Origin: an uncultured virus (IMG/VR IMGVR_UViG_3300028888_002345)
Taxonomy: Duplodnaviria > Heunggongvirae > Uroviricota > Caudoviricetes
Length of the DNA: 20,000 nt
Direction: 5' to 3' (one strand)
Virus record (IMG/VR): IMGVR_UViG_3300028888_002345
Shown here: one piece after another, positions 3,441 through 20,000 of the stretch
Layout: each line of letters opens with the position of its first letter
How positions within the stretch are numbered: the stretch's first letter is position 1
Position numbers and translations under genes: made by a program
Notes under the pieces: generated by a model
What the model saw: only the letters and a program-made list of their open reading frames with translations
What the model was told of the DNA's origin: nothing
Databases searched by the model: none

Positions 3441-3452
3441 TCAAAATCCCTA

Positions 3453-3928: not shown

Positions 3929-3930
3929 TT

Positions 3931-4344: not shown

Positions 4345-4375
4345 TTGTTATTTTCTTAACAATCTGCCCGGGCGA
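4345..4375. repeat. Half copy of the TTGTTAA/CCGG element
   Basis: TTGTTATTTTCTTAACAA tctgc CCGG. Confidence 0.6.
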
Positions 4376-4413
4376 ACTTCTCATCATTTTTTTAAAAAAT
4401 TTTAATTTTTTGC

Positions 4414-4442
4414 TTGACACAAGATATTTTATTTGCTATAAT
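4414..4442 (+). promoter_or_regulatory. Consensus sigma70/SigA promoter
   Basis: TTGACA-N17-TATAAT with TG. Confidence 0.85.
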
Positions 4443-4471
4443 TTACTTATCAAAAGAAAGGAGAAAAGAAA

Positions 4472-4663
4472 ATGAAAACAAACAAAGGACACATTCACTG
4501 CCCAGCTAATGCATGGGATTGCCCCTATTTTGATGCTAATGGATGTTGCATGATGTATCCCGATGCAGACCCAAAAGAAGAATGTGATGATTTCTATTTC
4601 TTCTGGGATGAAGATGATGATTACATTTGTTACAATAACCACGAAGGAGAAGAAAATGATTAA
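4472..4663 (+). CDS. Small Cys-rich acidic protein, 63 aa
   Basis: AAAGGAG RBS; CPANAWDCPYF...CC...ECDDF; very acidic C-terminus. Confidence 0.8.
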   Translation: MKTNKGHIHCPANAWDCPYFDANGCCMMYPDADPKEECDDFYFFWDEDDDYICYNNHEGEEND

Positions 4664-4907
4664 GGACTGGAATAGAAGCGAAGTAATGACACTTAAAGAT
4701 GTTTTTCATTTTAAAAATTCTTTAAGACCTTTTGTTACTGTAGATACTAATAGTGGAATTATTGGAGAACTTTTTATTGACATTAATGAAGGAGTAGCTT
4801 ATAATTTAGATGAATTAGAATACGAAGGGCTTGAATTCTATTCAAAAGAAGAAGATAAAGATTTTAAGGGTGTTGAAATAGACGGAACTATTAAAGAATG
4901 GTTTTAA
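4656..4907 (+). CDS. Hypothetical acidic protein, 83 aa (start reassigned from 4563)
   Basis: GAAGGAG RBS precedes ATG 4656, which overlaps the upstream gene's 3' end. Confidence 0.75.
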   Translation: MIKDWNRSEVMTLKDVFHFKNSLRPFVTVDTNSGIIGELFIDINEGVAYNLDELEYEGLEFYSKEEDKDFKGVEIDGTIKEWF

Positions 4908-4955
4908 CTGCGGGTACAGGTCTAACGGGGATTAGATTAGTCTAATCTCCTTTGA

Positions 4956-4983
4956 CCGGGCCGCCGCGTTAAATAAATAACTT
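4956..4983. repeat. Degenerate half copy of the CCGG/GTTAA element
   Basis: CCGG gccgcc GCGTTAAATAAATAACTT, same 6-nt spacing. Confidence 0.5.
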
Positions 4984-4994
4984 TTAAAAAACTC

Positions 4995-5023
4995 TTGACA
5001 ACTCTTTTTCTATCTGATATAAT
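4995..5023 (+). promoter_or_regulatory. Consensus sigma70/SigA promoter
   Basis: TTGACA-N17-TATAAT with TG. Confidence 0.85.
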
Positions 5024-5048
5024 TAAACCATCGAAAGGAGATAAAGAA

Positions 5049-5222
5049 ATGACACACATTGAACTTATTAAAGCAATCAAATCAAATTTTCAAAAAGAAT
5101 TTAAAGAAAATCCTACTACTTCTGAGCAGGTAAATGCTTTCCGAAGAGGTGTAATTTACGCTTATGATTATCTTATTGTTGTTTTAAAAAATGATGATTC
5201 ATGGATTTACGAAAGGAGATAA
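5049..5222 (+). CDS. Hypothetical protein, 57 aa
   Basis: AAAGGAG RBS before ATG 5049; the track's 4995 start lies in the -35 box. Confidence 0.75.
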   Translation: MTHIELIKAIKSNFQKEFKENPTTSEQVNAFRRGVIYAYDYLIVVLKNDDSWIYERR

Positions 5223-5227
5223 TTAAA

Positions 5228-5458
5228 ATGACAGTAGGACAAATTATGGTAGAAGTTAGAAAACTTAATGATGAAGAACTTAAAAATCTTGAAGATAATA
5301 TTCATGACCTTAAAAAAGACCGTGAAAATACCAAAAGAGAAAAAGCAGTAAATGAGCTTAGGAAAGCATGGGATATGGCGGTTTCTCTCGGAGTTGCAAT
5401 TTATGATAATGATGGTTATCAAATTGTAAATTTTGAAGACTTAGACTATCAGTTTTAA
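5228..5458 (+). CDS. Hypothetical coiled-coil protein, 76 aa
   Basis: AAAGGAG RBS before ATG 5228; terminator follows. Confidence 0.8.
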   Translation: MTVGQIMVEVRKLNDEELKNLEDNIHDLKKDRENTKREKAVNELRKAWDMAVSLGVAIYDNDGYQIVNFEDLDYQF

Positions 5459-5460
5459 AT

Positions 5461-5483
5461 AAACACCCTTCGGGGTGTTTTTT
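5461..5483 (+). terminator. Rho-independent terminator
   Basis: aaacaccc-ttcg-gggtgttt followed by a T-tract. Confidence 0.85.
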
Positions 5484-5583
5484 ATTTAACTACAATTAAA
5501 GTCCTCTAACTTTGCCGGCGCGATAATGTTCCACCTGCGCCGAAAAATCCTCCACTTGTCAATAGGTAATTTTCACAAATAAA

Positions 5584-5967
5584 ATGTTAAATTTTTAACA
5601 ATCTTCCTTTTTCCCGAAATTTTATTATGCAATAGTAACAAAAAAAGGTTTACATAATATTTATTTTTTGTACAATAGTACTAAATTTATAAAAAGTCAA
5701 TAGACAAAATGAACAAAAAAATATTGTTAAATTTTTAACAATGCCGTTAAAAATTTAACAATCCTCTCCGCTTTAGCACTGTAAAGCGTTACGCTTTAGT
5801 GTATTGAAGTCAGCAAGAGTAACGATCAAAAGAAAAGAGAGTATATGGTCTATATGGCTAGTTGGAATGGTTAAAGCATATGTACGCGGCAGCTGGTCAA
5901 AGAAGAAATGACTAACTATATGGATTTTTAATCTAGTTAAAGGGAAGGATTGTTAAAATTTTAACAA
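5584..5967. repeat. Cluster of four 18-bp palindromic TTGTTAA-N4-TTAACAA boxes
   Basis: Copies at 5584, 5724, 5744 and 5950; the last is a perfect palindrome, TTGTTAAAATTTTAACAA. Confidence 0.8.
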
Positions 5968-6048
5968 TAATGCTTAACGGTAGATTTTTAAATTGCTATA
6001 AGGAATATTAGACTGGTCCTGTGCACCGCATCACTACAATTTTTATAA

Positions 6049-6066
6049 TTTTCCACATTTTCCACA
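6049..6066 (+). promoter_or_regulatory. Two tandem DnaA-box matches
   Basis: TTTTCCACA TTTTCCACA; each matches the consensus TTWTNCACA. Confidence 0.4.
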
Positions 6067-6099
6067 ATTTTACTATTTTTCCAAAGCCTTTGATTTATT

Positions 6100-6324
6100 T
6101 TACCAATAATATATATCCTATTTATAACGAGAAGGTATTATTCCTTTTTCTCTTCTTTCTTCCAATACTTCTAAAACCTTATTAAACATTTCTTTTGTCT
6201 CTTCTATCCCTGCTTCTTCTCTATTCTATTTCATTCTTTTCATAAGCTAATAATAAGACTAACCTTCATTTTCGTAATTTTCTATAATCTGCTTTCTCCA
6301 GTTATCAGTCATTGTTATACTCAT
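6100..6324 (-). CDS. Hypothetical protein, 74 aa, TAG-recoded (4 TAG)
   Basis: Perfect AAGGAGG RBS; with TAG read through, MSITMTDNWRKQIIENYENEG*SYY*LMKRMK*NREE...RYK*DIYYW ends at TAA. Confidence 0.75.
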
Positions 6325-6464
6325 TTTGTTCCTCCTTTTCCATATGCATCTATTTTCCGGATATATTGCATCAAATGCCCAATCAAAACTTCACTCACCA
6401 AAATCGCACAGCCTATTAAGATAAAACTATTAGGAAGAATTATTCTATTAGGACTATTAGGAAG

Positions 6465-6582
6465 TGATGATAAAACATCCATTTTTAAGATAATGGATGA
6501 TGATAAAACATCTTACTATCTTAAAATGGATAATGATAAAATATCTTGTTATCTTAAAATGGATAATGATAAAATATCCACA
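6465..6582. repeat. Four iteron-like direct repeats with an exact 33-bp period
   Basis: TRATGATAAAAYATC at 6465, 6498, 6531 and 6564; spacers contain TATCTTAAAATGGA, inverted in the first unit. Confidence 0.8.
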
Positions 6583-6590
6583 CAAGCAAA

Positions 6591-7325
6591 TCAATCTATA
6601 GATAAAAGTTTTACAATATTTTTACTCTATAAAGAAAGATTATTTACCAACTCTTCTTCTATGACTTTAGGTAATCTCTTTCCTACAACATTAATTAATT
6701 GAAACTATTCTACTGGTCTATTTGTAGCATTTCCTGGTATTTTTACCCATACTTTTTTATACTCTATAAATTTCATTACAGATAAAGCAGATAAAGCTAC
6801 TTTAATAAGATCATTTACTCTACTATTTGCTGATTTAGAATAACCTAACATCTAACGAAGCTCAGTTAAAGTAAAAGTATAATCTGTTTTAAATTTATAT
6901 TTATCAGCTAAATAAAAATAAATTTTTATAACAAAAGGATTAGACACAGTACAAAGATAAGCTAAAACATCTACTGATACAATATAATAATTCTCATTAT
7001 AATTATATGGAAAAGTATATTCTTTAGCTTGCTCATCATATTTTATATAACCAGCGTCAATAAGCTTTTGTACTCTTTCTCCTACTTGTCTTGCCGTTTT
7101 ACCTATAACCTTCTTTATTATTGGTCTAAGTTTTTTATATTTAGACTAAGAAAGATATAAAAAAGACTGAGAACCATCTTTTTTCTATCCAGGCTTTATT
7201 CTTGCTGTAGCACCAACTAACATAAAAGAATAAACAATACTATCAAGATGATAATCAAACCAATCTGATTCTAATGAAATTCTTCTTGTTGCAGATGACT
7301 ATTTTTTTACAACAATAGTCTACAT
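6591..7325 (-). CDS. Putative replication initiator (Rep_3/RepA-like tandem winged helix), 244 aa, TAG-recoded (7 TAG)
   Basis: AAGGAG RBS; one frame from ATG to TGA if TAG is sense. 'NPFVIKIYFYL..KYKFK..YTFTLTELR*MLGY...NDLIKVALSAL' resembles the Rep_3 WH2 domain; adjacent to iteron-like repeats. Confidence 0.65.
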
Positions 7326-7425
7326 TTCTTCTCTCCTTGTAAAATGTAAAAAGGTTTCCCCTTTTTTCAAATCAAAATCATTTTAAAATTAAATCTACCC
7401 CGAATAAAAATAGAACATACCTCTA

Positions 7426-7608
7426 TTAAAATCCCAGGTTTTTAAGATACTAATCAAGTACCCCTATATATTGATCTGGAAGTTTCCTTACACCCCCAGT
7501 AAAAGAATAAAAAGTAGTATATGGAATATCACATTTATTACACATAGTCTTATAAGAAATTCCAATCTACTCCTTACATTTTTTAACTCTTTTCAATAAC
7601 TCTTCCAT
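7426..7608 (-). CDS. Cro/XRE-like HTH protein, 60 aa, TAG-recoded (2 TAG)
   Basis: GAGGT RBS; MEELLKRVKKCKE*IGISYKTMCNKCDIPYTTFYSFTGGVRKLPDQYIGVLD*YLKNLGF. Confidence 0.7.
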
Positions 7609-7672
7609 AATTACCTCGTCTGTAATTTTTTTATTTCATACATATGTAAAAAATAATTCATACAATTTTATT

Positions 7673-7924
7673 TTACTAGTCCAAAACTTTCTAATTTTTA
7701 CTCGATTCTTTTTCAAAATCTTTCATAGCCTCTATAACCTTCTCCATACCCCTCTTATTGCATAAATCAATAGTCTCACTAATTACATCAACACTATACC
7801 CCTCTTTAAAAATCCCCTAAACATAAATCATACTAATTACTAATTCCAATTCACTCAATAGCTCAGTAAGACTACCCCTTACAATATTCTTATATTTCTC
7901 ATTTTCTTTACTTATATTAATCAC
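7673..7924 (-). CDS. Hypothetical protein, 83 aa, TAG-recoded (3 TAG)
   Basis: GTG start overlaps the upstream TGA (GTGA); open to TAA at 7673 with TAG read-through. Confidence 0.6.
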
Positions 7925-8163
7925 GCGGGCGCCGGTCCTTCCTGGATTTTATCTAAATCCTTCTCTTCTTCGTTACTAGATTCTGCGGGGTTTAAACGGG
8001 CTCCCGCGTTACTTTTATACTTTTCTTCTATTGGTCTCTCCCACCCCGGTTTTGTTAACCAATTACAAACACCTCGTTTATCAATAACTACTAATCTATT
8101 TAAACAAAAACCACTTTTACTACAATAACCGCAGTTTTTGACCTAACATATAACATTTTGCAT
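7921..8163 (-). CDS. Small Cys-rich (DUF1540-like) protein, 80 aa, TAG at codon 7
   Basis: GAGG RBS and own promoter; MQNVIC*VKNCGYCSKSGFCLNRLVVIDKRGVC. Confidence 0.7.
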
Positions 8164-8193
8164 TTTAATTCCTCTTTTCTCTATTGTAATTAT

Positions 8194-8222
8194 ATTATAT
8201 CAAAAATTTCATCGTTTGTCAA
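8194..8222 (-). promoter_or_regulatory. Consensus sigma70/SigA promoter heading the minus-strand recoded cluster
   Basis: Reverse strand TTGACA-N17-TATAAT with TG. Confidence 0.85.
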
Positions 8223-8226
8223 TCTT

Positions 8227-8255
8227 TTGATTTTTTAAAAAATTTTTATTATAAT
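8227..8255 (+). promoter_or_regulatory. Divergent back-to-back sigma70-type promoter
   Basis: TTGATT-N17-TATAAT. Confidence 0.7.
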
Positions 8256-8348
8256 ATATATATACGGAAAAAGTAAAAAACGCTTTTTCGACTTCCAGCA
8301 AAAAACCAGAAAAAAGTCTTTATTTTTAAAAGAAAGGGGAAATGAAAC

Positions 8349-8543
8349 ATGCATGAACATAAAATAGACAAGAAAAAAATTCTTTTTTGGCTTGGTTTAA
8401 TTTTTTCAGTTATCGCCTTTTATGTGGCAGGAGGTTTTCTAGTTTCTTTTGTTTTTAGACTTTTATTTCTAGAAGGTTTGGCTATTTTTATTTTAACAAC
8501 TATTCTTGTAACTACATTAATTCTTGTTTTTGAAACTATTTAA
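8349..8543 (+). CDS. Small membrane protein, 64 aa
   Basis: AAAGGGG RBS; two hydrophobic segments. Confidence 0.75.
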   Translation: MHEHKIDKKKILFWLGLIFSVIAFYVAGGFLVSFVFRLLFLEGLAIFILTTILVTTLILVFETI

Positions 8544-8554
8544 AGGAGGATAAT

Positions 8555-9121
8555 ATGGGCGCTGATATTCATGTTAGAATTTGTAAATATGATTCAAAAA
8601 CTAATCTTTATAAAGAACTCGCTATTTATAGACTTCGAGAAGAAGATGAGAAATATAAATATGATTATAACGAGGAAAAAAATATTTGGGAGAAAGAAGA
8701 AATTACAAACCCCTATATTAAAATTTCTCCTTATGACGCTAGAAATTATGAGATGTTTGATGGGATGAAGCATGGAAATGAAACTGATGGATATGGATAT
8801 TTTCCATGTACCTCTATTGCTTTAAATTCTCTTGAGCCTTCTCTTAGAAAAGATATTGAAGATAAGATGAATATGAAAGAAAGCTACTACGATTTTTATG
8901 AAACTTCTTTCGCAGATGTAGAAGCTTATCTTTATAAATATCCGACTGTTGTAGACTATGATTTAGAATGGGAAGAAGGGGAAATTAAACCTTGTAAAGA
9001 TAATCCTATTAGGGAATTTTATCAAAAATGTTTAGATTATACCTACTTTGCAGAAAGATTTGGTATATATGCTGAACAGCCTTTTTCTCAGTATAAAATT
9101 CTTTTTTGGTTTAGCTGTTAA
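8555..9121 (+). CDS. Hypothetical phage protein, 188 aa
   Basis: AAGGAGG RBS; 'MGADIH...RNYEMF...ILFWF' pattern typical of a common phage hypothetical family. Confidence 0.85.
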   Translation: MGADIHVRICKYDSKTNLYKELAIYRLREEDEKYKYDYNEEKNIWEKEEITNPYIKISPYDARNYEMFDGMKHGNETDGYGYFPCTSIALNSLEPSLRKDIEDKMNMKESYYDFYETSFADVEAYLYKYPTVVDYDLEWEEGEIKPCKDNPIREFYQKCLDYTYFAERFGIYAEQPFSQYKILFWFSC

Positions 9122-9133
9122 ACAAAATTATAT

Positions 9134-9165
9134 AAGAGAGGATAAATATCCTCTCTTTATTTTTT
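9134..9165 (+). terminator. Rho-independent terminator
   Basis: aagagaggat...atcctctctt followed by a T-tract. Confidence 0.75.
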
Positions 9166-9216
9166 TATAAATTTTTGATATAATAAATATATAATAAAAG
9201 GAAAGGAGTGTTTTTA

Positions 9217-9501
9217 ATGTTAAAATATGAAAAACAAGACGAAGAAGAAATAAAAAAACTAAAAAAATTTAAAAAAAACTATCTTAAACTTAAAAATTTT
9301 AACCTTTCCGAAGAAGAAAAAGTTAAAAGATTTTTGAAAGTTATGAGAGGAGAAGAGTGTCATTATATGCTTGTAATTATCTTCCCTGATTGTGAATACA
9401 ATATAGCTCTTTATGATGATATGATAATTAAAGAAGAAGTAGATAAAATTGAAAATTTAATGGGGACTGAATGTTTATATTATGAGGTAAGAATAAAATG
9501 A
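9217..9501 (+). CDS. Hypothetical protein, 94 aa
   Basis: AAAGGAG RBS; extended -10 promoter at about 9176-9184. Confidence 0.75.
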   Translation: MLKYEKQDEEEIKKLKKFKKNYLKLKNFNLSEEEKVKRFLKVMRGEECHYMLVIIFPDCEYNIALYDDMIIKEEVDKIENLMGTECLYYEVRIK

Positions 9502-9740
9502 CTACTTTTAGAGAAATGGTAGATACTGGATATTTCGGTTATATATCTGAAAAAGAAGGTATAACCTCAATTAATTCTTCGCGGACGACAAAAATTAATG
9601 CAATTATTAAAGATTTTAAATCTTTAGTAAAACAAGGGAAAAACCCTAATGAATATATTTATGAAGTTCTACATAAATATGGACTTAATGAGCATTTGCT
9701 TACTGAAGCAGAGATTGAAAGGATTAATAATTTAGAATGA
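9498..9740 (+). CDS. Hypothetical protein, 80 aa
   Basis: ATGA overlap, GAGGT RBS. Confidence 0.8.
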   Translation: MTTFREMVDTGYFGYISEKEGITSINSSRTTKINAIIKDFKSLVKQGKNPNEYIYEVLHKYGLNEHLLTEAEIERINNLE

Positions 9741-9919
9741 ATACAGATACACTTACCATCTTTGAGCAGCAAGCTCTGCTTCAATTTCTTAAAGACAATC
9801 TTAATCGAGAAACAATCTCGGTTTATTCTGGCAGTACGCCCCATAGTTTATTCTTAGCCTTCTTGAAACTTCAAAAGAATATAGACAAACTCAATGAAGG
9901 CTTAGGGTATACAGAATAA
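9737..9919 (+). CDS. Hypothetical protein, 60 aa
   Basis: ATGA overlap with the upstream gene. Confidence 0.7.
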   Translation: MNTDTLTIFEQQALLQFLKDNLNRETISVYSGSTPHSLFLAFLKLQKNIDKLNEGLGYTE

Positions 9920-9929
9920 GGAGGTTATT

Positions 9930-10109
9930 ATGGCTTTTGATTAGAGAAATAGTCATTATTTAAATGAAAAAAATAGAATTTTTCCAAAATCAGAACCAGA
10001 TTTTTGGGATGTAATGGATGCAGATTATAATATAAAAACTGGAAATACTTTTGGAGAAACAGAACAAATAACTCTTTAGTTGCAAAACTGGAGAAGTGAA
10101 TAGAGGTGA
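9930..10109 (+). CDS. Hypothetical protein, 59 aa, TAG-recoded (3 TAG)
   Basis: Perfect AAGGAGGT RBS; MAFD*RNSHYL...ITL*LQNWRSE*R ends at TGA overlapping the next start. Confidence 0.7.
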
Positions 10110-10378
10110 ATACCTTGCTTAAATTAGTTTTTATTATTTTAGGAATTATTATAATATCTGCATCAATTTCTTATGGTTTATATTATAAATACCTTTATGT
10201 AAATTTACATAGAAATTTTAAATCTTATATGAAAAATGTAGAACGTAAATATATTAATGTAGATGTTATTTTACGCAATGCAGTATATGAAGCATATATA
10301 AATGCAAAAGAAAAACATTATGCTTTTGAACAAAAGGCTTATGAATAGCTATATCAAAAGATAAAAGCAAAATGGTAA
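10106..10378 (+). CDS. Membrane-anchored protein, about 90 aa (reads through TAG 10346)
   Basis: N-terminal TM helix; read-through reaches TAA 10376, immediately before the terminator. Start may be TTG 10115. Confidence 0.7.
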
Positions 10379-10382
10379 TTTT

Positions 10383-10424
10383 AAGGGAAGAGATTAAAAT
10401 AAAATCTCTTCCCTTTATTTTTTT
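10383..10424 (+). terminator. Rho-independent terminator
   Basis: aagggaagagatt...aatctcttccctt followed by a T-tract. Confidence 0.8.
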
Positions 10425-10481
10425 TAAAATTTTTGATATAATTATTATATCAAGAGGAAAGAAAAGAAAGGGGTTGTACTT

Positions 10482-11393
10482 ATGAATGAAAAATGGTATG
10501 TCGCTCCGAGCTATGAACACGCAGAAATCAAAAAAATTGATGAAGAAAATCATAAAGCATATATCAAAGAAGTATGCCCGAGATGCAGTGGACTGGGTAT
10601 TATCGTTTCTCGTGTTGAAAATGGCAAGATGATTCCTATCCCGGTAGATGGCGGTATATGCTATCAGTGTAATGGTGATAAATATATCTACAAATGGGTT
10701 AAAGCTTATACAGAAAAAGAATATGCCCGTTACACTAAAAACCAGGAAAGAGCAAAAGAACGTAGAATTGAAAAAGAAAAAGCTAGAATTGCTGAATTAG
10801 ACGCAAAAGCAGAAGAAAATAAAGCAGCTCTTCTTGAAAAATTTGGTTTTGATGTAGAAAATCCTACTGTTTATCTTATTAGTGGAAATACATTTGAAAT
10901 CAAAGATTGGATTAAAGAACGCGGCGGCCGTTACAACCCTGCTTTAAACTGGTACTTTACAGGAAATTCCAACCAGCTTCCGGAAGGCTACGAGTATATC
11001 GCAATTCCGTTTGATGACTTGTATGATTGGTATCCGCGTGTTAAGAGAATTGAACTGAAAGACAATGCGAAAGAAATCGCGGAAGCCGCTCGAATCGCCG
11101 CTATGCCTGAGTCTAAATCTGAATGGGTAGGAGAGATTAAGCAGCGTATGCGTGACCTCAAGGTAGTATTAACCGGCGCCCGCGTGGTTTCCAGCGCATA
11201 TGGAGAATCTATCATGTTCACTTTTGATTATAATGGCAACGCATTGGTCTGGTTTACCTCTTGTCCGCCTGATGAAGATAAGGCTATTGTTGGTCATGAA
11301 TATCTTCTTACCGGCACGGTTAAAAAATATGATGCTTATCGTGGTGTGAAACAGACTTACCTTAATCGTTGTATTTTAAAGGAGGTATGTTAA
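10482..11393 (+). CDS. Zn-finger plus C-terminal OB-fold nucleic-acid-binding protein, 303 aa
   Basis: CPRCSGLG...CYQCNG; central 'GNTFEIKDWIKERGGRYNP..WY'; C-terminal 'LTGTVKKYDAYRGVKQTYLNRC' OB-fold-like. Confidence 0.7.
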   Translation: MNEKWYVAPSYEHAEIKKIDEENHKAYIKEVCPRCSGLGIIVSRVENGKMIPIPVDGGICYQCNGDKYIYKWVKAYTEKEYARYTKNQERAKERRIEKEKARIAELDAKAEENKAALLEKFGFDVENPTVYLISGNTFEIKDWIKERGGRYNPALNWYFTGNSNQLPEGYEYIAIPFDDLYDWYPRVKRIELKDNAKEIAEAARIAAMPESKSEWVGEIKQRMRDLKVVLTGARVVSSAYGESIMFTFDYNGNALVWFTSCPPDEDKAIVGHEYLLTGTVKKYDAYRGVKQTYLNRCILKEVC

Positions 11394-11578
11394 TGACTAT
11401 TTATATGGTTCAAAAAATTGATGGATATGGTGGATGGGGAGAGACTTATTATGGAGAAGTAATTGCAGTTTTTCCGACAAGAGAAGAAGCTGAAAATTAT
11501 GTTTATAGTCATCATCTAGACAGTGCTATGTACAGTGGATGGCCGACCATTATAATCACAGAAAAAGAACTTAAATAA
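11393..11578 (+). CDS. Hypothetical protein, 61 aa
   Basis: GGAGG RBS, TAATG overlap; 'VIAVFPTREEAENY' common small phage protein pattern. Confidence 0.8.
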   Translation: MTIYMVQKIDGYGGWGETYYGEVIAVFPTREEAENYVYSHHLDSAMYSGWPTIIITEKELK

Positions 11579-11642
11579 GATTATTTTACTTTTAAAAAAA
11601 TTTTTGATATAATATATATATCAAAAGAAGGGAGATAAGCTT

Positions 11643-12089
11643 TTGAAGAAGGAAATTACTGCTATTACAGAGATTCTTAATGACTTTTTGAAACCTTTTG
11701 ATTGTGTATCAAATTTTGGAGAAGCTTTTGGTTTTTATCCATTTTCTAACACTGTTGAATTTGCACTCACTGTAAAAGACGTTCATGCTAAAACTTTTAT
11801 GAACTTTGTAACTAAGCGGTATCCCGATATTCATGCTGACATATTTTTATGGAGTATTATGCATGAAGTAGGTCATCATGAGACAGAAAATGATTTTGAT
11901 GATGATGAATGGGAAGACTATATGAGAGCAATTTTTAATTGCGAAGATGATATGGAATATTACCATTTGTCTATTGAATGCGCGGCGACCGATTGGGCGG
12001 GGAATTACATGAGAACTCATACAGATGAGGTTTCAGCCCTATGGAAGAAACTGCAGCCCGCGATTATGAACTTTTACAAAAGTTTTTAA
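11643..12089 (+). CDS. Putative zinc metallopeptidase (HExxH; ImmA/IrrE-like), 148 aa
   Basis: SIMHEVGHH plus downstream 'IECAATDWA' third-ligand motif; TTG start with GGGAG RBS. Confidence 0.7.
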   Translation: MKKEITAITEILNDFLKPFDCVSNFGEAFGFYPFSNTVEFALTVKDVHAKTFMNFVTKRYPDIHADIFLWSIMHEVGHHETENDFDDDEWEDYMRAIFNCEDDMEYYHLSIECAATDWAGNYMRTHTDEVSALWKKLQPAIMNFYKSF

Positions 12090-12176
12090 ATTATTTTACT
12101 TTTTAAAAAATTTTTGATATAATAAATACATAAGAAATAAGAAAACACTTTTAAAAAAGAAAGAGGTATGTGAACT

Positions 12177-12539
12177 ATGACTAAGAGAGAAATGTATGAT
12201 GTAATTGCTGAAGTTTTTGCTACTGTTGACCGTGAGGATAAAGAAGATGTCCTTGAAATGGTCAAGAAAGAAGTTGCTGCTCTTGACCGTAAGGCAGCTA
12301 CGGCTCGGAAGAAAGCTTCTGAGAAGAAAGCAGCTGGAGATGAGCTGAGAGAGCGAATCTCTGCTGTAATTGGCGAAGAGCCGATTACTGTTGAGGGTAT
12401 TCTTGATGCTCTTGATGAAGATGGTCTTACTCCTGCTAAAGTAACTGCTCGTACTAAGCAGCTTGTTGACCTTGGTGTGGTCGAAAAGAAAACTGTCAAA
12501 ATTGGTGACAGAAAGCTGATGGGGTATTACAAAGCTTGA
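12177..12539 (+). CDS. Winged-helix DNA-binding protein, 120 aa (paralog 3 of 3)
   Basis: 5' leader nearly identical to those of 1228 and 2848; 'EPITVEGIL...LTPAKVTARTKQLVDLGVVEK'. Confidence 0.8.
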   Translation: MTKREMYDVIAEVFATVDREDKEDVLEMVKKEVAALDRKAATARKKASEKKAAGDELRERISAVIGEEPITVEGILDALDEDGLTPAKVTARTKQLVDLGVVEKKTVKIGDRKLMGYYKA

Positions 12540-12562
12540 TATAAGCTACCCTAGTAATTTGT

Positions 12563-12598
12563 AATAAAGAGGGGCTTAATGCCCCTCTTTATTTTTTT
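12563..12598 (+). terminator. Rho-independent terminator
   Basis: aataaagaggggc-ttaat-gcccctctttatt followed by a T-tract. Confidence 0.85.
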
Positions 12599-12640
12599 AA
12601 AAATTTATGTTATAATATTATTATAATAAGGAGAAAAATT

Positions 12641-13321
12641 ATGGATTATAACGTAAGTAATTTTAAAGAATTTTTTAATAAAAAGTTTATATCATGCCAT
12701 TTCACAAGTAATGATATAGATGATTTAGTATATGAAATTGAAAAAAATTTTCCAAATTTTAGTTTTACTTTTGAAGAAGGTGCTACTAAATGCGTTATAA
12801 TTCCAAAAGAAGCTGATTATGTTATTAAAATTCCCTTTGATGGTGAATACAGAGAAAATGAAGAATTAGAAGAAGAATTCTATATGTTTTCCGGAGGGGG
12901 ACAAGAAGGCTGGGATTATTGTGACCAGGAATGTGCTTATTATGAAGATATTATAAAGGGTTCTGGTTTTGAAAAGTTCTTTTTGCCAAATAGTGTATTA
13001 AGTTTTGATTGGCCTATGTACACACAGCAAAAGGCTGAAGTATATATTGATTCTTATAGAAAAACTTCTAATAAATCAAAAAAAATGGTCAAAGAAATGA
13101 AAAAGTCCATATGGACTAATTTACCTAATATATGGTTAGAATTATGCTTAGAAAATTTTAATTTTGATATAAATAAATTAAAGAATTTTATTTGTTTCTT
13201 AGATGATAATTTTTCAGATTTACATAGAAGTAATATTGGTTATGTGGGAAATCAAGCAGTAGTTATTGATTATGCAGGTTACTGTGAATAGGAGGTAATG
13301 TGGGATGGAAGCTCCGTATGA
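12641..13321 (+). CDS. Minimal protein-kinase-like protein (216 aa to TAG 13291; 226 aa to TGA 13321 if recoded)
   Basis: 'EEGATK', 'YVIKIP', catalytic-loop-like 'DLHRSNIG' and Mg-binding-like 'VIDYAG'. Confidence 0.7.
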
Positions 13322-13559
13322 ATTTGAAATAGAAAGATATGATGAAGTTGAAAAAAGAACAGAAACTTTGCATGGGGTATTATTTGCTGACTCCTATGCT
13401 GATGCAGCTAATAAATTAGATAGTTACTTTAAAACAGAATTAGTCAGCATGAAAATTTTTGCCAATGAAGAAAGTCCAGTTTATATTTTTGAGAATACCA
13501 AGGAAGAATTGTGGCATGGGTTATATGAAGTAGATTTTAAAGAATGGGTAACAAAATAA
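13305..13559 (+). CDS. Hypothetical acidic protein, 84 aa
   Basis: AGGAGGT RBS, TAA stop. Confidence 0.8.
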   Translation: MEAPYEFEIERYDEVEKRTETLHGVLFADSYADAANKLDSYFKTELVSMKIFANEESPVYIFENTKEELWHGLYEVDFKEWVTK

Positions 13560-13561
13560 AG

Positions 13562-13590
13562 TTGCCCTTTTTTAAAATTTATGATATAAT
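13562..13590 (+). promoter_or_regulatory. sigma70-type promoter
   Basis: TTGCCC-N17-TATAAT with TG. Confidence 0.65.
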
Positions 13591-13613
13591 ATTATTATAA
13601 AGGAATGAAAATT

Positions 13614-13841
13614 ATGTATACTTATAATGATGCTATAAGTGAATATGGTATTGAAATTGCGGCGGCCCTGTCTAAAGAAGAATTTAACCAAATTATGGGA
13701 GGGTTTGAACGGACGCCCGCGAGTAGGCGTGATTTTGTTCCTTTTGATACTGATAATTATATAGATGCTCTTGAATTTATAGGGCATAAAAGGATGCGAA
13801 TTACAAATGAAAAGTTGTATAGAATGGCGGAAGAGTTTTAA
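13614..13841 (+). CDS. Hypothetical protein, 75 aa
   Basis: AAAGGA RBS before ATG 13614. Confidence 0.7.
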   Translation: MYTYNDAISEYGIEIAAALSKEEFNQIMGGFERTPASRRDFVPFDTDNYIDALEFIGHKRMRITNEKLYRMAEEF

Positions 13842-14598
13842 ATATTTACCAGAAATAGATTAGTTTAATATAGATTTCCGCAATAAATAGATAAAATTAA
13901 ATAAATTTTTAGATATATATGCTAAGTCTCAAAGGGTAAACATTAGACTTCCAGAAGAATATACAGAAGATGATATTAATTTATTGATTGCTGCTTATGA
14001 AAAAGGATATAATATAGCAATTATTCTTCCTGGTCAAAAGTCACAAAAAATTACATCTGTTCCATTTTATTTTTCTATTCCTGCGTATACTTGGGACCAG
14101 TTTTTAACTTACATTTCTATTGGTGTAAGTGATATTTTTATATCAGGTGATTTAGCTTTTGAATTAGATAAAATAAGTCCAATAGCTAAAGAAAAAAATA
14201 TTAGAATTAGATGTTATGCTAATATTGTTCAGGTAGATAATAATTTAAATAAGTATAATGATGGATTTAAGCAATTCTTTATTCGCCCAGAAGATATAGA
14301 CATATATGGAGAATATGTAGATGTAATAGAATTTTATAATTCTATTGAACGTCAAAATACTTTATATGAGATATATTTTAAAGATAAAGAATGGAATGGA
14401 AAACTAAGAGAAATTATTCAAGGTATGGATAATTAGGTAAATAATTACTATATTCTTGGAAAAGAGTTTGCTTAGAGAAGAATTAAATGTAATAGAAAAT
14501 GTTTAAAAGGTGATAATTGTCAACTTTGTGAAAGATTATTAGAATTAGCAGAAAGTTTAGAAAAAAGTAAAGATTATTAGGTGTTTAAGAGGAGGTAA
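13807..14598 (+). CDS. Phage peptidase-U32-like protein with C-terminal Cys cluster, 263 aa, TAG-recoded (5 TAG)
   Basis: Read-through of TAG at 13861, 13888, 14434, 14473 and 14578 gives one ORF ending 2 nt before the next ATG; 'FFIRPEDIDIY..YVDVIEF' and CNRKC-x5-CQLC. Confidence 0.7.
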
Positions 14599-14600
14599 CT

Positions 14601-14909
14601 ATGGCTCGGGGAGCAGTTGCAAAAGAACAGATTTTTAAAAAAATGCTTGAAGTCTTTGAAGGAAGTTTTATGTATAATTCTGGAAAAGAACTTCGTATTC
14701 CGTGGGATGAAAACGGAACTCTTGTGCAGATTAAAGTAGCTTTAACGTGTGCAAAAGACAATGTATCAGTAGGAGAAGAAGTGAACGCGGCGGTTGTTAA
14801 AGAAGAGGCACCGGTTAGTAACTTCCCAGCCCCTAAGAAAAAGGTTGAAGTTACTGAAGAAGAAAAACAGAACGTGGAAGACCTTCTTAAAGCACTTGGA
14901 TTGCAGTAA
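14601..14909 (+). CDS. Hypothetical phage protein, 102 aa
   Basis: AGGAGGT RBS, TAA stop. Confidence 0.85.
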   Translation: MARGAVAKEQIFKKMLEVFEGSFMYNSGKELRIPWDENGTLVQIKVALTCAKDNVSVGEEVNAAVVKEEAPVSNFPAPKKKVEVTEEEKQNVEDLLKALGLQ

Positions 14910-14918
14910 GGAGAATTA

Positions 14919-15221
14919 ATGGGACATGTATATCATGCTGAAATTTGGGAGTGTAACGGTAAATGGCTATGTGGTGACGTTTCAGCCCTCGCCGCGTGTT
15001 CCAATTATTGTTGGTATCCAGCATTTATTTTAGACCTTTCCCCTGTTGATTTTGTAAAATTACTTATTTCAAAGTATCATGCTGTAAATCTTAGTTATAA
15101 AGCTAAATATGATGTCCTAATTTATTATTTTTCTACTATTGAAGACGCTCGAAAATATAAAAATGATATTAACAAAGCTGCTAAATTAAAAAATTTTATT
15201 AATTATGAGTAGGTCATATAA
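14919..15221 (+). CDS. Hypothetical protein, 97 aa to TAG 15212 or 100 aa to TAA 15221
   Basis: AAGGAG RBS; end depends on TAG decoding. Confidence 0.75.
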
Positions 15222-15510
15222 AAAACATCCGAGAGCAAAAGATACTGCTAGCAAAAACATGAAAAAATTTGCTAATAAAAAAGTTAGAGCAAATCAGGAT
15301 AATCTTCCCTCTAAAGGCAAGTCTTTTAAAAAAATTTTTGAGTCATGGGAGATTTCTGACTGGAATTGGCATTGGTCAAAGAGAGAAGCTATTGAAGAGT
15401 GGGAAGAAGAAGAATCTCCTCATTATACAGGATTAGCATGGAGACATGAGCGTTTTAAAACCTTTGAAAAATGGTTACAATATTGGGAAAAAAGTATAAA
15501 AAGAAAATGA
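15205..15510 (+). CDS. Basic hypothetical phage protein, 101 aa
   Basis: 'MSRSYKK.P..KD.....KK.ANKKVR' pattern; TGA stop followed by a hairpin. Confidence 0.75.
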   Translation: MSRSYKKHPRAKDTASKNMKKFANKKVRANQDNLPSKGKSFKKIFESWEISDWNWHWSKREAIEEWEEEESPHYTGLAWRHERFKTFEKWLQYWEKSIKRK

Positions 15511-15517
15511 TTACTTT

Positions 15518-15552
15518 GGACAATATTATAAAATATTGTCCTTATTTTTTTA
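15518..15552 (+). terminator. Terminator-like hairpin between the accessory and structural modules
   Basis: ggacaatatt-ataa-aatattgtcc followed by a T-tract. Confidence 0.7.
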
Positions 15553-15605
15553 TTATTTTTTAGAATTATTATATCAATATCTTAAAACTAAGAAAGGAAC
15601 TTTTT

Positions 15606-15977
15606 ATGGCTAATAAAACTATAGATGAACTTACTGAATTAACTAGTTTCGTCGAAAATGATGAATTAGCTATATATGATCTCAGTAATGACCTTACCAC
15701 TAAAGGAAAAATTAAAAATCTTTTTAAAACTCCTTTAACAGATTTAAATACTACATCTAAAAATTTAATAGGTGCTATTAATGAAAATAAAGCGGCTATT
15801 TAGAGTGGAGGCGGATCTGGTAGTGGATTACCTACTCCTCCAGATACATAGGGAGAATATATGCTCTCCTTATCTGTTAGCAGTTTAGATCAAGGATAGT
15901 CTCTTATTTATAATTATGGTTGGGAATAGTATATAAATGGAGATGATATATAGTATGGTATTAATCAGCCAACATAA
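15606..15977 (+). CDS. Putative virion/tail-associated protein, 123 aa, TAG-recoded (5 TAG)
   Basis: AAAGGA RBS; 'L.DLNTTSKNLIGAINE' motif typical of tail-fibre proteins; GGGSGSG linker after the first TAG. Confidence 0.7.
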
Positions 15978-16011
15978 TTTTTATAATAGAAAATAAACAA
16001 GGAGGTTATTT

Positions 16012-16368
16012 ATGTCAAGTGTAATTAAAGGAACCTCTATTACGCTTACTCGCGGAGATACATTACGAGTTCTTGTAGGAACTACTTATAAAGATGGAAC
16101 TGTATATACCCCTCAAAATGGAGACACAATTCGTTTTGCACTTAAACATCCGCAATTAAATACAAGGCAAACTGAATATAAAGATACTTAGCCTTTAATA
16201 ATAAAAGAAATACCTTATGATACAATGATATTAGAATTAGAACCAAGTGATACAAAACCTTTAGGTTTTGGTACTTATGTTTATGATATATAGATTACTT
16301 TTCCAGATGGAAGAGTTGATACTTTTATTACTTAGGCAGTTTTTAAATTAACACCAGAGGTACATTAA
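16012..16368 (+). CDS. BppU-like baseplate upper protein N-terminal domain, 118 aa, TAG-recoded (3 TAG)
   Basis: AAGGAGG RBS; 'ITLTRGDT...IRFALK...LEPSDTK.L.FGTYVYDI*IT..DG.VDTFI...FKL..EV'. Confidence 0.8.
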
Positions 16369-16369
16369 A

Positions 16370-16660
16370 ATGGCAGATTTAACAAGAATAGATGGTGAAA
16401 TTATAGGGTCATTATCTTCTCTTGATACTCTCTCTGGAACTTTAACAAATACATTGACCCTATCTGGAACTTTAACTCCAGGAACTTTTTCAAAAGATTA
16501 TCCTGTATATACTGGAATGTATGAAATAATTCCACTAGTAGATTTAGATATATTACTAGAAACAGCGAATAAAAGATTATAGGACAATATAATAGTTAGA
16601 AAAATTCCATATTCTGAAACTTTAAATGAAAGTGGTGGTTATACAGTGATAATAGGATAA
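16370..16660 (+). CDS. Tail-associated protein, 96 aa, TAG-recoded (1 TAG)
   Basis: Read-through restores C-terminal 'DNIIVRKIPYSETLNESGGYTVIIG', which matches the C-terminus of the next gene (IP....N..GG.TV..G). Confidence 0.75.
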
Positions 16661-16670
16661 GGAGATTTTG

Positions 16671-17267
16671 ATGGCAAATCAATATAAAAATAAAATAATT
16701 TTTGGTTAGGAAGTTTTAATTGATTTAACATCTGACACAGTAGATGAGGATCATTTATTACTAGGATATACTGCGCATGATAAATCAGGTGCTCCTATTG
16801 TTGGTTCCTGTACTTATGATTCAAATACCGCAGATGCAACTGCAACAGCAGCAGATATTTTAGCAAATAAAACTGCATATATTGCAGGAGAAAAAATAAC
16901 CGGAACAATATAGAATAATAGTGCATTATCTGGAACTATTTCAGATATTAATACACCTTATGTTATTCCTCAGGGTTATTATGACGGAACTAGTTCTGTC
17001 AGTATTGATTCTGATTAGCAATCTAAAATTATTGCTAGTAATATTAGAGAAGGTGTAGAAATTCTTGGCGTTGTAGGAACAATGACAGGAACAGAAGATG
17101 TTAATGCACAATAGAAAACAATTATTCCAACTTTTACACAACAAACTATTGTACCCGATTCTCCTACATATAATTATCTTTCATCAGTAACAGTATCTGC
17201 AATTCCAATTACAATGACTGATAATGCAGCCGGCGGAGTTACTGTTACCGTTGGTACTATTATATAA
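16671..17267 (+). CDS. Tail-fibre-repeat protein, 198 aa, TAG-recoded (4 TAG)
   Basis: AAGGAG RBS; 'DATATAADILANKTAYIAGEKITGT', 'IPQGYYDG', 'IIASNIREGVEILGVVG' repeats. Confidence 0.8.
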
Positions 17268-17287
17268 ATAGGAGGGTAATTTAAAAA

Positions 17288-17575
17288 ATGGCAGTAAATA
17301 TCGTTAATATTAATGGGGAAGATATTGTAAATCTTACGGATGCAACTGCCACAGCAGATAAAATTCTTTTAGGTTATACTGCATATGGTTCCGATGGAAA
17401 TAAAATAGTCGGAATTATTAATACATATGATGGTATGACTAATTTTATACCTACAACTTCTTAGCAGGTAGTTGCTACCGCTGGAAAAATTGTTACAGAA
17501 GATATAATTGTCGAACCAATACCAAGTAATTGGGGATTAATAACATGGGATGGCGCTGTTTTAACAGTGTCTTAA
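17288..17575 (+). CDS. Tail-associated protein, 95 aa, TAG-recoded (1 TAG)
   Basis: AGGAGG RBS; 'DATATADKILLGYTAYGSDG' repeat shared with neighbours. Confidence 0.8.
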
Positions 17576-17588
17576 AGAAGGATAAAAT

Positions 17589-19028
17589 ATGGCACAAAAT
17601 GTAATAATTAATGGCGTAACATATAATAGTGTACCTTAGGTTAATATCCCACTAGCGGGTGGAGGAACCGCTCACTTTTATGATACTTCTGATGCTACTT
17701 TAACTAGTGGAGATCAGATGTTATCTGGATATACAGCCTATGCTAATGGTACAAAATATACAGGTGCTATTGTACCAAAAGCAGCTTCAGATATGACTGT
17801 TTCTGGAGCTACGGTTACAGTACCTGCTGGATATTATGCTTCCGATATGACTAAAACTATTGCTACTGGTTCTGCAAGTACGCCAGCATCAACCATTACA
17901 GCAAATCCAACTATTTCTGTTAGTGCTACTGGTCTTGTTACAGTTACAGCTAGTAGTTCTCAGTCTATAACGCCAACTGTTACTCCTGGCTATATCGCTT
18001 AGGGTACTGCTGGAACAGTTACAGTTAAAGGAAGCAATACAAAACAACTTGATACAACTTCTATTACAGAAGGTAAAACAACAGTCTCTGGGACAACTGC
18101 AACTAGAGGTACAGCTACATGGAATACAGGATGGATTCAAACTGGTACTATATAGGCTGCTACTTTTGCTAATTCAGCAACATCAGGTAAAACATATGTA
18201 GATATTTCTTCTACAGATGATGCTCCTGTTCTTATTGCTGGAGATTCTTTATATATAAATAAAGGTTATGTCGATGATATTAAAATTAGTCTTGCAAAAC
18301 TTGTTCCAGACGGAGCTAATGCAAATCTTGCATCTGGAGTAATTTTAAGTGGATATTCAGCTTATAATAGTGATGGTACTCTTGTAGCTGGTAGTATTCC
18401 ATCAAAAGCAGCTGCTACTTATAATGTAAGCACATCTAATCAAACTATAGCAGCTGGACAATACTTATCAGGTGCTCAAACAATAAGAGCGGTTACAACA
18501 GCAAACATTTCTGCTGCAAATATTAAAAGTGGAATAACTATTAAAGTTGGTGACTCTGCTGATGATGATAGAATTATTACTGCAACTGGTACTTTTACAG
18601 CTGCTAATACTGTATCTAATGGACAGGTCGCGGCCGGTGCTGACCAGATCGTATCTGGGTATTCAGCATTCGTAGACGGGGTTGAAGTAAAAGGTTCAAT
18701 AGCATCAAATGGACCTGTTTCAGGAACAATTTCTACAAAAGCTGGAACAGTAACAGTACCTGCTGGTTATACTAGTGGAGGTAGTGTTTCAATAGCTTCT
18801 GCTGAACAAGCAAAAATTATTTCTGGCAATATTAGATCTGGAGTAACTATTCTTGGTGTCGCTGGTAGTTCAACAGTTGTTGACACTGCTCTTACAACAA
18901 ATGTAGCAAATGCTTCTCGTATTTTAAATGGATATAAAGCCTTTGTTAATGGAGAACAAATTACAGGTACTTTAACAACACCTGTTGTATCTCAAGATTC
19001 AGCTACAAAGGTTCTTAGTATTTCGTAA
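17589..19028 (+). CDS. Tail-fibre-like Thr/Ala/Ser/Gly-rich repeat protein, 479 aa, TAG-recoded (3 TAG)
   Basis: One frame from ATG 17589 to TAA 19026 interrupted only by TAG at about 17637, 18000 and 18153; repeated 'ILSGYSAY..G', 'VTVPAGY', 'NIKSG' units. Confidence 0.85.
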
Positions 19029-19046
19029 TGAGTAAAAGGAGGAAAT

Positions 19047-20000
19047 ATGGCACAAAACATCACTATTAATGGCGAAAACTTTCAAAGTGTGCCATCTGTG
19101 GTGTTGCCTAAGACTGGTGGCGGCAGTGCGTCATTCGTTGATACGACTGATGCTACTGCTACACCCAGTGAAATATTACAAGGCTACACTGCGTACGGTG
19201 CGGACGGCACCAAACTTACAGGAACCGCCGCGGGCGGAGTAGTCACAATAGTGGACACACAAGATGCAGCTGGTGGTACAATTAGAGAAATTACTGCGTC
19301 AGAGACGTTTACATTACAAGGAAATAAAAGTGTGACTCCCTCTGAAACAGCGCAAACAATAACTCCAGACACTGGATATGATGCATTTGCTAAGGTTAGC
19401 GTTGGAGCAATATCATCTACATATGTAGGATCTGATATTGCAAGAAAGTCTTCTTCAGACCTTACTGCAAGTGGAGCCACAGTTACTGTACCCGCAGGAT
19501 ATTATTCTTCCCAAGCATCAAAAGCTGTTGCAAGTGGTTCTGCAACAACACCAGCTACAACTATTACAGCAAATCCAACAATTAGTGTAAGTACTGGTGG
19601 TTTAATTACTGCAACTGCATCTACTTCTCAAAATGTTACTCCTACTGTTTCTGCTGGATATGTATCTAGTGGTACAGCAGGGAAAATTACGGTAAGTGGA
19701 TCAAAAACTCAACAACTTACTGTAAAAGCTGCTTCTACATATAATGTAAATACATCTAATCAAACTATTGCATCGGGGCAATATTTAACAGGAACACAGA
19801 CAATTCGTGGTGTTACCACTTCAAATATTTCAGCAGCAAATATAAAAAGTGGAGTTGTAGTTAAAGTTGGTGATTCAGCAGACGATGATAGAATTACCGG
19901 CGTTACTGGGACTTTTACCGCGGCAAACACTGTATCAAGCGGACAAACCGCGGCAGGTGCTTCCCAGATTTTATCTGGGTATTCGGGATTTGTAGACGGC
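19047..20000 (+). CDS. Tail-fibre-like repeat protein, paralog of 17589..19028 (runs off the window)
   Basis: AAGGAGG RBS; 318 open codons with no TAG; long blocks highly similar to the upstream gene, e.g. 'NISAANIKSG...KVGDSADDDRI...TGTFTAANTVS'. Confidence 0.85.
   Translation, partial: MAQNITINGENFQSVPSVVLPKTGGGSASFVDTTDATATPSEILQGYTAYGADGTKLTGTAAGGVVTIVDTQDAAGGTIREITASETFTLQGNKSVTPSETAQTITPDTGYDAFAKVSVGAISSTYVGSDIARKSSSDLTASGATVTVPAGYYSSQASKAVASGSATTPATTITANPTISVSTGGLITATASTSQNVTPTVSAGYVSSGTAGKITVSGSKTQQLTVKAASTYNVNTSNQTIASGQYLTGTQTIRGVTTSNISAANIKSGVVVKVGDSADDDRITGVTGTFTAANTVSSGQTAAGASQILSGYSGFVDG

Follow-up and report, generated by a model that had tools for sequence, protein, structure and literature searches.

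Glutamate as the probable meaning of the amber codon in late genes of a fragmentary ~140-kb tailed phage

The 20,000-nucleotide stretch of DNA analysed here (hereafter, the window; positions refer to it unless given as genome positions) comprises bases 19232-39231 of the linear, 44,686-bp IMG/VR record IMGVR_UViG_3300028888_002345, and our subject is the TAG codons that interrupt its open reading frames (ORFs) between positions 6100 and 19028. Our comparisons make it likely that the contig is a fragment of a ~140-kb phage in which TAG is read as Glu in the genes for packaging, head and tail fibres and in several small late ones, TAA and TGA act as stops, and decoding would depend on a phage-encoded suppressor derived from tRNA-Glu. 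A preliminary description of this DNA had proposed that TAG is reassigned to a sense codon, probably Gln (genetic code 15). The reassignment is borne out, but the homologs speak for a different amino acid.

Once ORF starts were refined against homologs, the region from 6100 to 19028 was found to contain 16 ORFs with 46 in-frame TAGs; the pattern previously recognized by hand thus stands, with its counts (14 genes and 43 TAGs) replaced. Genes had been said to be broken by TAG only, and the 2401 codons of the 16 ORFs indeed include not one in-frame TAA or TGA. The two other frames of the same ORFs hold 98 and 152 TAAs and 25 and 105 TGAs. A core resembling a ribosome-binding site (RBS) lies upstream of 15 of the 16 starts, in agreement with the good RBSs noted before, and the tight junctions reported at 14598/14601, 16368/16370 and 7921/7924 are all present. 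Comparing coding density under different codes, as the preliminary description had proposed, yields a gain specific to TAG: greedy ORF coverage of the region climbs from 0.563 under code 11 to 0.908 when TAG counts as sense, and to 0.575 in a TGA-sense control; the corresponding values for the whole contig are 0.609, 0.846 and 0.61. A TAA-sense control reaches a coverage of 0.80, which is uninformative in AT-rich DNA. The contig therefore displays the coding-density signature of stop-codon-recoded phages, namely conserved genes broken by one stop only. Profile matches also run straight across the TAGs, with PHROG family phrog_13589 matching the gene at 16668 (E-value 2.3e-47) and the portal family phrog_2739 matching over seven TAGs (E-value 2.5e-68).

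Across the contig, the greedy gene set contains 128 in-frame TAGs, clustered at genome positions 593-8178, 25331-27394 and 32870-44521, with the block at 8259-24689 nearly free of them. Expressed per 1000 codons, TAG occurs at 22.5, 27.9 and 9.9 in the late blocks and at 2.6 and 3.7 in the middle blocks, so the recoded codon is concentrated in late and structural genes and rare in early ones. As read from the DNA, these patterns show TAG to be a sense codon in late genes, with TAA and TGA as stops and with early and middle genes that avoid TAG. Four ORFs carry some or all of their TAGs near the C-terminus (10346, 13289, 15210 and 7691/7676), and these C-terminal TAGs could be real stops; for 13289, this is suggested by the 17-nt overlap with the next gene that read-through would create.

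That the TAGs at large are real stops or errors, owing to decay of the phage, chimerism of the assembly or systematic miscalling, is exceedingly improbable. Such a view could appeal to the fragmentary nature of the contig, to the few C-terminal TAGs that could be true stops and to 11 single-base differences between the window sequence and the genome record (window 14960, 18904 and 19682-19985 among the sites). However, in the genes examined these differences neither create nor remove in-frame TAGs, and TAG positions recur in five independent contigs (23 in common with L008, 13 with L009, 15 with L010, 4 with L043 and 2 with L035), from which we conclude that the TAGs are not assembly errors. 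The contrast in TAA and TGA counts between the reading frame and the other frames, the profile matches that cross TAGs, the position of TAGs on conserved Glu columns (see below) and the persistence of in-frame GAG (28 in the left late block) all oppose it further. A systematic GAG-to-TAG miscall was rejected in its own right: in-frame GAG persists, relatives mostly carry GAA, and other lineages pair another meaning of TAG with a matching tRNA.

The identity of the amino acid was sought in six conserved genes of the contig. A scan of IMG/VR with the large terminase (TerL) returned 249 relatives, 80 loci of which were kept for comparison. In the TerL alignment (72 distinct sequences, 9 identical copies of 81 having been dropped), codons were tracked and TAG was translated apart. 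Eight of the ten TerL TAGs stand on Glu columns (42/42, 43/43, 41/47, 52/52, 61/65, 46/69 with the rest mostly D, 57/67 and 68/68), and the remaining two on variable columns in which D is commonest. Over all six genes, 56 TAG sites were scored with the aligned residues verified as real sense codons. Glu ranks first at 39 of them, followed by D (5 sites), A (4) and T (3); the log-odds are +85.2 for E, -70.0 for D and -102.0 for Q, and the plain column likelihood is -53.8 for E versus -217.5 for D. As a control, the same procedure gave the true residue for 17 of 17 control codons, GAA, GAG, CAA and CAG included. When all 75 scored TAG sites are considered, the columns occupied to at least 90% by one residue comprise 15 for E, 2 for D, 1 for Q and 1 for G.

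Two further lines of evidence, which do not depend on the alignments, converge on the same residue. The TerL protein has 32 Glu, as opposed to 43.1 ± 2.7 (minimum 39) in 25 TAG-free full-length homologs, and 22 Gln, as opposed to 23.3 ± 2.0 in the same homologs; its 10 TAGs fill the Glu gap and there is no Gln gap to fill, which supports Glu and not Gln. At 90 TAG sites of this phage where close relatives differ, the relatives have GAA at 50, GAG at 8, GAT at 6 and CAA or CAG at 3; reciprocally, at 80 TAG sites of the relatives this phage has GAA at 44, GAG at 4 and CAA or CAG at 7. These column comparisons show that TAG corresponds to Glu on this contig. The defining property of NCBI genetic code 15, Gln in homologs at TAG positions, is absent here, and the alignment of homologs at TAG columns, a check named in the preliminary description, gives an answer other than the one expected there. 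Pyrrolysine was rejected as well, the TAG columns being Glu and not Lys-like.

Inside the window, database proteins had to be used because the DNA of relatives was hardly found. An IMG/VR search with two window proteins yielded no relatives, nor did a search with alignment A1; GTDB genomes searched with a 259-aa protein and a megablast search of window 6000-16000 against GenBank phages returned no match; a glycosyltransferase query retrieved 80 loci that share only that gene with this phage; and a tail protein of the related genome G001 found only itself. In database homologs, a 'Q' may stand for a TAG that was translated by a gene caller using code 15. Each of the seven TAGs of the gene at 6591-7325 appears as Q both in P0001, the entry of the window itself, and in P0002, which is 96% identical; P0036 (88% identical) shows Q in every one of five TAG columns and contains 15 Gln (family mean, 9.9) and 17 Glu (family mean, 21.4). 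With P0001 and P0002 excluded, Glu leads at 8 of the 19 in-window sites and Gln at 2 (Table 1), and the plain column likelihood is -41.1 for E versus -57.4 for Q. The in-window evidence thus points to Glu, weakly and less clearly than the contig-wide sites. Because the decisive genes and the window share one contig, we adopt the contig-wide Glu reading for it.

Each related locus was scored by the same TAG-column procedure. The Glu type comprises this phage, L008, L009, L010, L043, L035 and G001, together with contigs L291 and L294 from metagenome-assembled genomes (MAGs), in which Glu is the top residue at 20 of 30 and 22 of 39 sites, respectively. G001, the 136,945-bp record behind L021, is 89% complete and contributes 18 sites (E +8.6), including columns of E54/54 and E36/36. 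L042, L087 and several MAG contigs are of a Gln type, and L037 (23 sites, W +79.7) and L070 (21 sites, W +92.6) of a Trp type; within this TerL family, no fewer than 25 loci (among L038-L086) read TGA as Trp. By this scoring, the TerL family holds four stop-codon meanings. TAG as Trp was not found for phages in the literature searched. A quick tree of 61 TerL rows puts the three readings of TAG in three places and joins this phage with L008 and L009 in a clade (support 99); the Glu type may have a single origin. We tentatively entertain, at less than even odds, a broader scenario for the family (TerL at least 63% identical), in which the amber codon would have been captured independently by Glu, Gln and Trp through duplicated cognate tRNAs turned CUA, alongside TGA as Trp, with hosts that charge CUA tRNAs via glutamyl-tRNA synthetase (GluRS) rather than glutaminyl-tRNA synthetase (GlnRS), and with GatCAB amidation of the suppressor setting Glu versus Gln.

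The same survey brought up two other patterns. L013, L014, L020, L034, L044 and L060, otherwise of standard code, each have three to four in-frame TGAs on Cys columns, which could reflect selenocysteine, TGA read as Cys or gene breaks. L289, L122, L124 and L158 have TAG on Tyr columns (2 to 10 sites), which may be an artefact of antisense frames aligning together or a further reading.

The preliminary description had placed the decoding machinery outside the window; neither a CUA tRNA nor a release factor was found in the window or in the contig. The only tRNA of the contig is a tRNA-Lys(UUU) at window 3236-3309, and in the related genome G002 a tRNA-Lys(UUU) is likewise found, about as far from TerL as here. 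GluRS or GlnRS catalytic domains and RF-1 domains were detected neither in the contig, G001 or G002 nor in G000, and the 80 TerL loci contain no tRNA. Scanned for CUA stem-loops, the Glu-type fragments L008, L009, L010, L035, L043, L291, L294 and L313 returned only a terminator-like hairpin and coding-region matches, and ARAGORN found no tRNA on L313. In G001, by contrast with these loci, the same scan identified a 74-nt element (G001:23216-23289) inside a tRNA array and on the same strand, although none of the 15 Rfam tRNA hits of this genome has the anticodon CUA. Folded to minimum energy, it forms a cloverleaf whose anticodon loop is CUCUAAA, whose variable loop has 4 nt and whose T-loop is GGCAGCA. 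Among 97 family tRNAs, its best match is G001's own tRNA-Glu(UUC) (46 of 73 positions identical; score 14, as opposed to at most 7 for the others), with which it has the D stem and the variable-loop length in common. In Escherichia coli, the identity of tRNA-Glu for GluRS includes U11-A24, U13-G22 and a missing residue 47. The G001 element has the Glu-like body that an amber suppressor of this kind calls for (D stem with U11-A24 and U13.G22; 4-nt variable loop) and is a candidate tRNA-Glu-derived amber suppressor, with charging and activity as predictions.

A method control comes from L070 / G002, which is of the Trp type: its tRNA(CUA) (L089:6182-6354) duplicates the neighbouring tRNA-Trp(CCA), matching it at 56 of 72 positions and carrying a 21-nt insert in the variable region, and supports the logic of a suppressor matched to the reading. 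Separately, a tRNA(CUA) on an unrelated high-GC viral contig (L320:5983-6057) fits the Glu-type pattern of D-arm and anticodon, and in two MAGs this Glu-type pattern gave matches at chance level.

These elements suggest a mechanism in which a phage-encoded amber tRNA, derived from tRNA-Glu, would lie in the missing part of the genome and would be charged with Glu by the host GluRS, so that late proteins would be completed only once the phage suppressor is expressed. Many Bacillota lack GlnRS and produce Gln-tRNA through a non-discriminating GluRS and GatCAB. This pathway suggests why a CUA tRNA could carry Glu in such hosts and why the Glu and Gln readings would be one step apart. A timing model of late-gene translation is proposed for recoded phages in the accessible part of a survey (10.1101/2021.08.26.457843).

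Several findings weigh against reading TAG as Glu by way of such a suppressor. No tRNA(CUA) was found on this 31%-complete contig, and this phage lacks a tRNA at the place (window 14601-15977) syntenic to the tRNA array of G001, which lies amid homologs of window genes 14601-15510, so that the decoder, if phage-encoded, must lie in the missing 100 kb. The tRNA(CUA) of G001 is a single example, missed by ARAGORN and by Rfam even at an E-value of 10, and pattern scans of IMG/VR and of metagenomes of the Joint Genome Institute revealed no second copy of it; its T-loop (GGCAGCA) is odd and its folding ordinary, no better than 37 of 200 shuffles (z -1.02). No GluRS gene was found in the phages, and charging by the host enzyme is therefore assumed. 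Within the window, the log-odds at the 19 sites are nearly equal (E 8.5, Q 7.3), an interim count of 12 sites had Q slightly ahead by log-odds, and the TAG at 7146 stands on Q in 16 of 16 database homologs.

These last observations, together with the 16012 gene, in which the TAG column at aa94 has Q55 versus E53, are also what the window offers to the reading of TAG as Gln (table 15) known from crAss-like, Lak and phAss-1 phages. Gln is the only meaning given to TAG in phages in the parts of 10.1101/2021.08.26.457843 and PMC10607447 that were available, and Gln-type sister lineages exist in this very family (L042, L087 and several MAG contigs). We nevertheless regard Gln as highly improbable for this phage. 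At the 56 codon-checked sites the log-odds are opposite in sign for Q and E, the 11-residue deficit of TerL is in Glu with none in Gln, relatives exchange TAG with GAA or GAG at 58 of 90 sites and with CAA or CAG at 3 of 90, and part of the 'Q' in databases is TAG translated by code 15. The two motifs that had been cited for Gln carry little weight: 'YVYDI*IT' falls on a column where 139 homologs are split between the two residues, and 'PTTS*QVV' involves one paralog pair only. The preliminary description had itself recorded E or S opposite some TAGs.

A mixture of Glu and Gln at TAG, as could arise from charging by a non-discriminating GluRS followed by partial GatCAB amidation, is somewhat more plausible than pure Gln, and still unlikely. 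It would accommodate the minority of TAGs on Gln-dominated columns (aa339 of the gene at 5807-6988, with Q49 and E16, and the TAG at 7146) and the fact that the phages encode neither GlnRS nor GluRS, and the indirect Gln pathway of many Bacillota also counts in its favour. Against it, the columns conserved to at least 90% include 15 for E versus 1 for Q, and exchange between E and Q is common in any family, with E on top at 11 of 86 control CAA sites. Glu as the meaning of TAG, decoded by a tRNA-Glu-derived suppressor, remains the explanation we consider likely.

As judged by sequence comparison, the contig is a fragment of a large, gut-type tailed phage of ~140 kb that is akin to SPbeta, Enterococcus EF1 and phAss-1. 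CheckV estimates the 44.7-kb contig to be 31% complete, and relatives' contigs of 137 and 146 kb to be 89% and 93% complete. Pfam and PHROG scans of 34 ORFs, with TAG translated as X, place the large terminase, a homing endonuclease, the portal (phrog_2739, E-value 2.5e-68) and a sigma-factor-like protein on the minus strand at the left contig end, and tail-fibre-like proteins, a BspA-type leucine-rich repeat (LRR) protein and a family 2 glycosyltransferase (GT2) in the right half of the window and beyond. The large terminase and portal are homologous to those of SPbeta / EF1 / E3 / phAss-1-like phages; TerL is 44% identical to its counterparts in Enterococcus phages VRE9_4 and H1 and Geobacillus virus E3, 41% to that of phAss-1 and 33% to a YonF-annotated gene. 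The portal block adjoins TerL in this phage (genome 26-8178), and ~40 kb separate the two blocks in G001. The MAG bins in which relatives were placed carry labels such as Bacilli, Erysipelotrichaceae and Lachnospiraceae, which are weak hints at the host. Of 24 sequencing runs that a search listed, one contains 0.99 of the sequence words and may be the source, and three others, one of them RNA, contain 0.34-0.41; all bear the label sheep gut metagenome, and these matches speak for neither habitat nor expression.

Between TerL and portal lies the homing-endonuclease gene (L006:3643-3996), with all four of its TAGs on near-invariant Glu columns (69/69, 67/71, 68/68 and 69/71). In TerL itself (L006:4074-5810), phrog_15503 and phrog_24618 cover only the N- and C-terminal parts (residues 9-231 and 349-578), and the two families look as if built from TAG-truncated fragments of recoded phages. 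At the other end, window 17589-20000 and L007 hold paralogous tail-fibre genes with segments of up to 78% DNA identity, one of them with a BspA-type LRR end, and the GT2 glycosyltransferase gene among them is without any TAG. A recorded 136,639-bp contig likewise carries the window's 150-aa code-11 fragment P0064 (window 13984-14436), and P0002, which shares 96% identity with the protein of 6591-7325, lies on a 75,096-bp NCBI contig; these records imply that a near-complete genome of this phage exists in public data. The ORFs with in-frame TAGs are listed in Table 1.

Table 1. ORFs with in-frame TAGs in the window and, for four genes, the residues that homologs carry at the TAG columns.
Feature	Window position	Strand	In-frame TAGs	Residues at TAG columns	Remarks
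74-aa ORF	6100..6324	-	4 (6259, 6247, 6226, 6118)		Stop TAA; RBS-like core upstream; no family match
244-aa ORF	6591..7325	-	7 (7320, 7299, 7185, 7146, 6852, 6705, 6627)	16 homologs: E5 T4 Q3; E7 D5 Q2 (aa24); D16 (aa62); Q16 (aa75); K9; N7 E5 Q3; E9 Q5 (aa248)	Stop TGA; start at the Met where homologs begin
60-aa ORF	7426..7608	-	2 (7567, 7450)		Weak phrog_8898 match
83-aa ORF	7673..7924	-	3 (7817, 7691, 7676)		Last two TAGs near C-terminus; 4-nt overlap with next gene
80-aa Cys-rich ORF	7921..8163	-	1 (8143)
71-aa ORF	9894..10109	+	4 (9903, 9942, 10077, 10101)		Only one of the 16 without RBS-like core
90-aa membrane-like ORF	10106..10378	+	1 (10346)		TAG near C-terminus; may be true stop
226-aa ORF	12641..13321	+	1 (13289)		TAG at aa 217; may be true stop
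263-aa ORF	13807..14598	+	5 (13861, 13888, 14434, 14473, 14578)	90 homologs: aa19 E62 Q21; aa28 E36; aa210 D50; aa223 R37 K19 E14; aa258 E30 Q29	Stop TAA; start refined from 13639
100-aa ORF	14919..15221	+	1 (15210)		TAG at aa 98, may be true stop; homolog in G001
123-aa ORF, start 'MANKTIDEL'	15606..15977	+	5 (15801, 15849, 15897, 15927, 15951)
118-aa virion-module protein (phrog_1084)	16012..16368	+	3 (16189, 16291, 16333)	139 homologs: aa60 E42 T22 D14; aa94 Q55 E53; aa108 N18 E15 K14
96-aa ORF (phrog_31538)	16370..16660	+	1 (16580)
199-aa tail-fibre-like protein (phrog_13589, E-value 2.3e-47)	16668..17267	+	4 (16707, 16911, 17016, 17112)	6 codon-checked relatives: G6; P4; E6 (aa117); S3 A3	Sites other than aa117 variable
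95-aa tail-fibre-like ORF	17288..17575	+	1 (17462)
479-aa tail-fibre paralog	17589..19028	+	3 (17637, 18000, 18153)
997-aa tail-fibre paralog (start), BspA-type LRR end	19047..20000	+	3, all beyond the window

Stop-codon recoding of late phage genes is already known, and what is new here is Glu as the probable meaning of TAG: full-text searches of the accessible literature (supplementary files lying outside their scope) found no phage that reads TAG as Glu. Table 15 is what gene callers and databases apply to all TAG-recoded phages. If the Glu reading is correct, translation with table 15 puts Gln where the protein most likely has Glu in this lineage, an error that P0001, P0002 and P0036 already display in databases, with Q at TAG positions, and that swaps a charged for a neutral residue where terminase, portal and nuclease are conserved. 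Close relatives with three TAG meanings would constitute a natural system for the study of stop-codon capture and of the tolerance of synthetases for CUA, and this is of interest also for the engineering of orthogonal suppressor pairs. The survey 10.1101/2021.08.26.457843 states, in its accessible part, that phages whose code differs from that of their hosts showed no reassignments other than TAG to Gln and TGA to Trp; our results suggest, contrary to it, that amber reassignment in phages is not limited to Gln.

The closest known systems are the code-15 phages (crAss-like, Lak, Garnet and others), which, in the portions available of 10.1101/2021.08.26.457843 and PMC9523058, resemble this phage in having in-frame TAG in structural and late genes with early genes compatible with the standard code, in gaining coding density only when TAG is sense and in the expectation of a suppressor tRNA(CUA), which not all of the known cases encode; they differ in that TAG aligns with Gln there and with Glu in this phage. 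Another is phAss-1, of the proposed Phassvirus group, as far as the accessible text of PMC10607447 describes it: a phage of the same broad kind, ~136 kb in size, in which 41 ORFs, TerL among them, contain TAG and tRNAs are numerous but no phage-encoded synthetase was found, and with three tRNA-SUP-CTA genes typed as Gln and TAGs on Gln columns, in contrast to the Glu columns of this phage. Phages that read TGA as Trp (code 4; Agate and similar, in the available part of 10.1101/2021.08.26.457843) have their likeness in the sister loci of this TerL family, at least 25 in number, that read TGA as Trp, and differ from this phage in both codon and amino acid. TAG as Glu is a property of NCBI table 30, the peritrich ciliate code, yet that code is eukaryotic and nuclear and also reads TAA as Glu, whereas in this phage TAA is the main stop, ends most genes and never occurs in frame.

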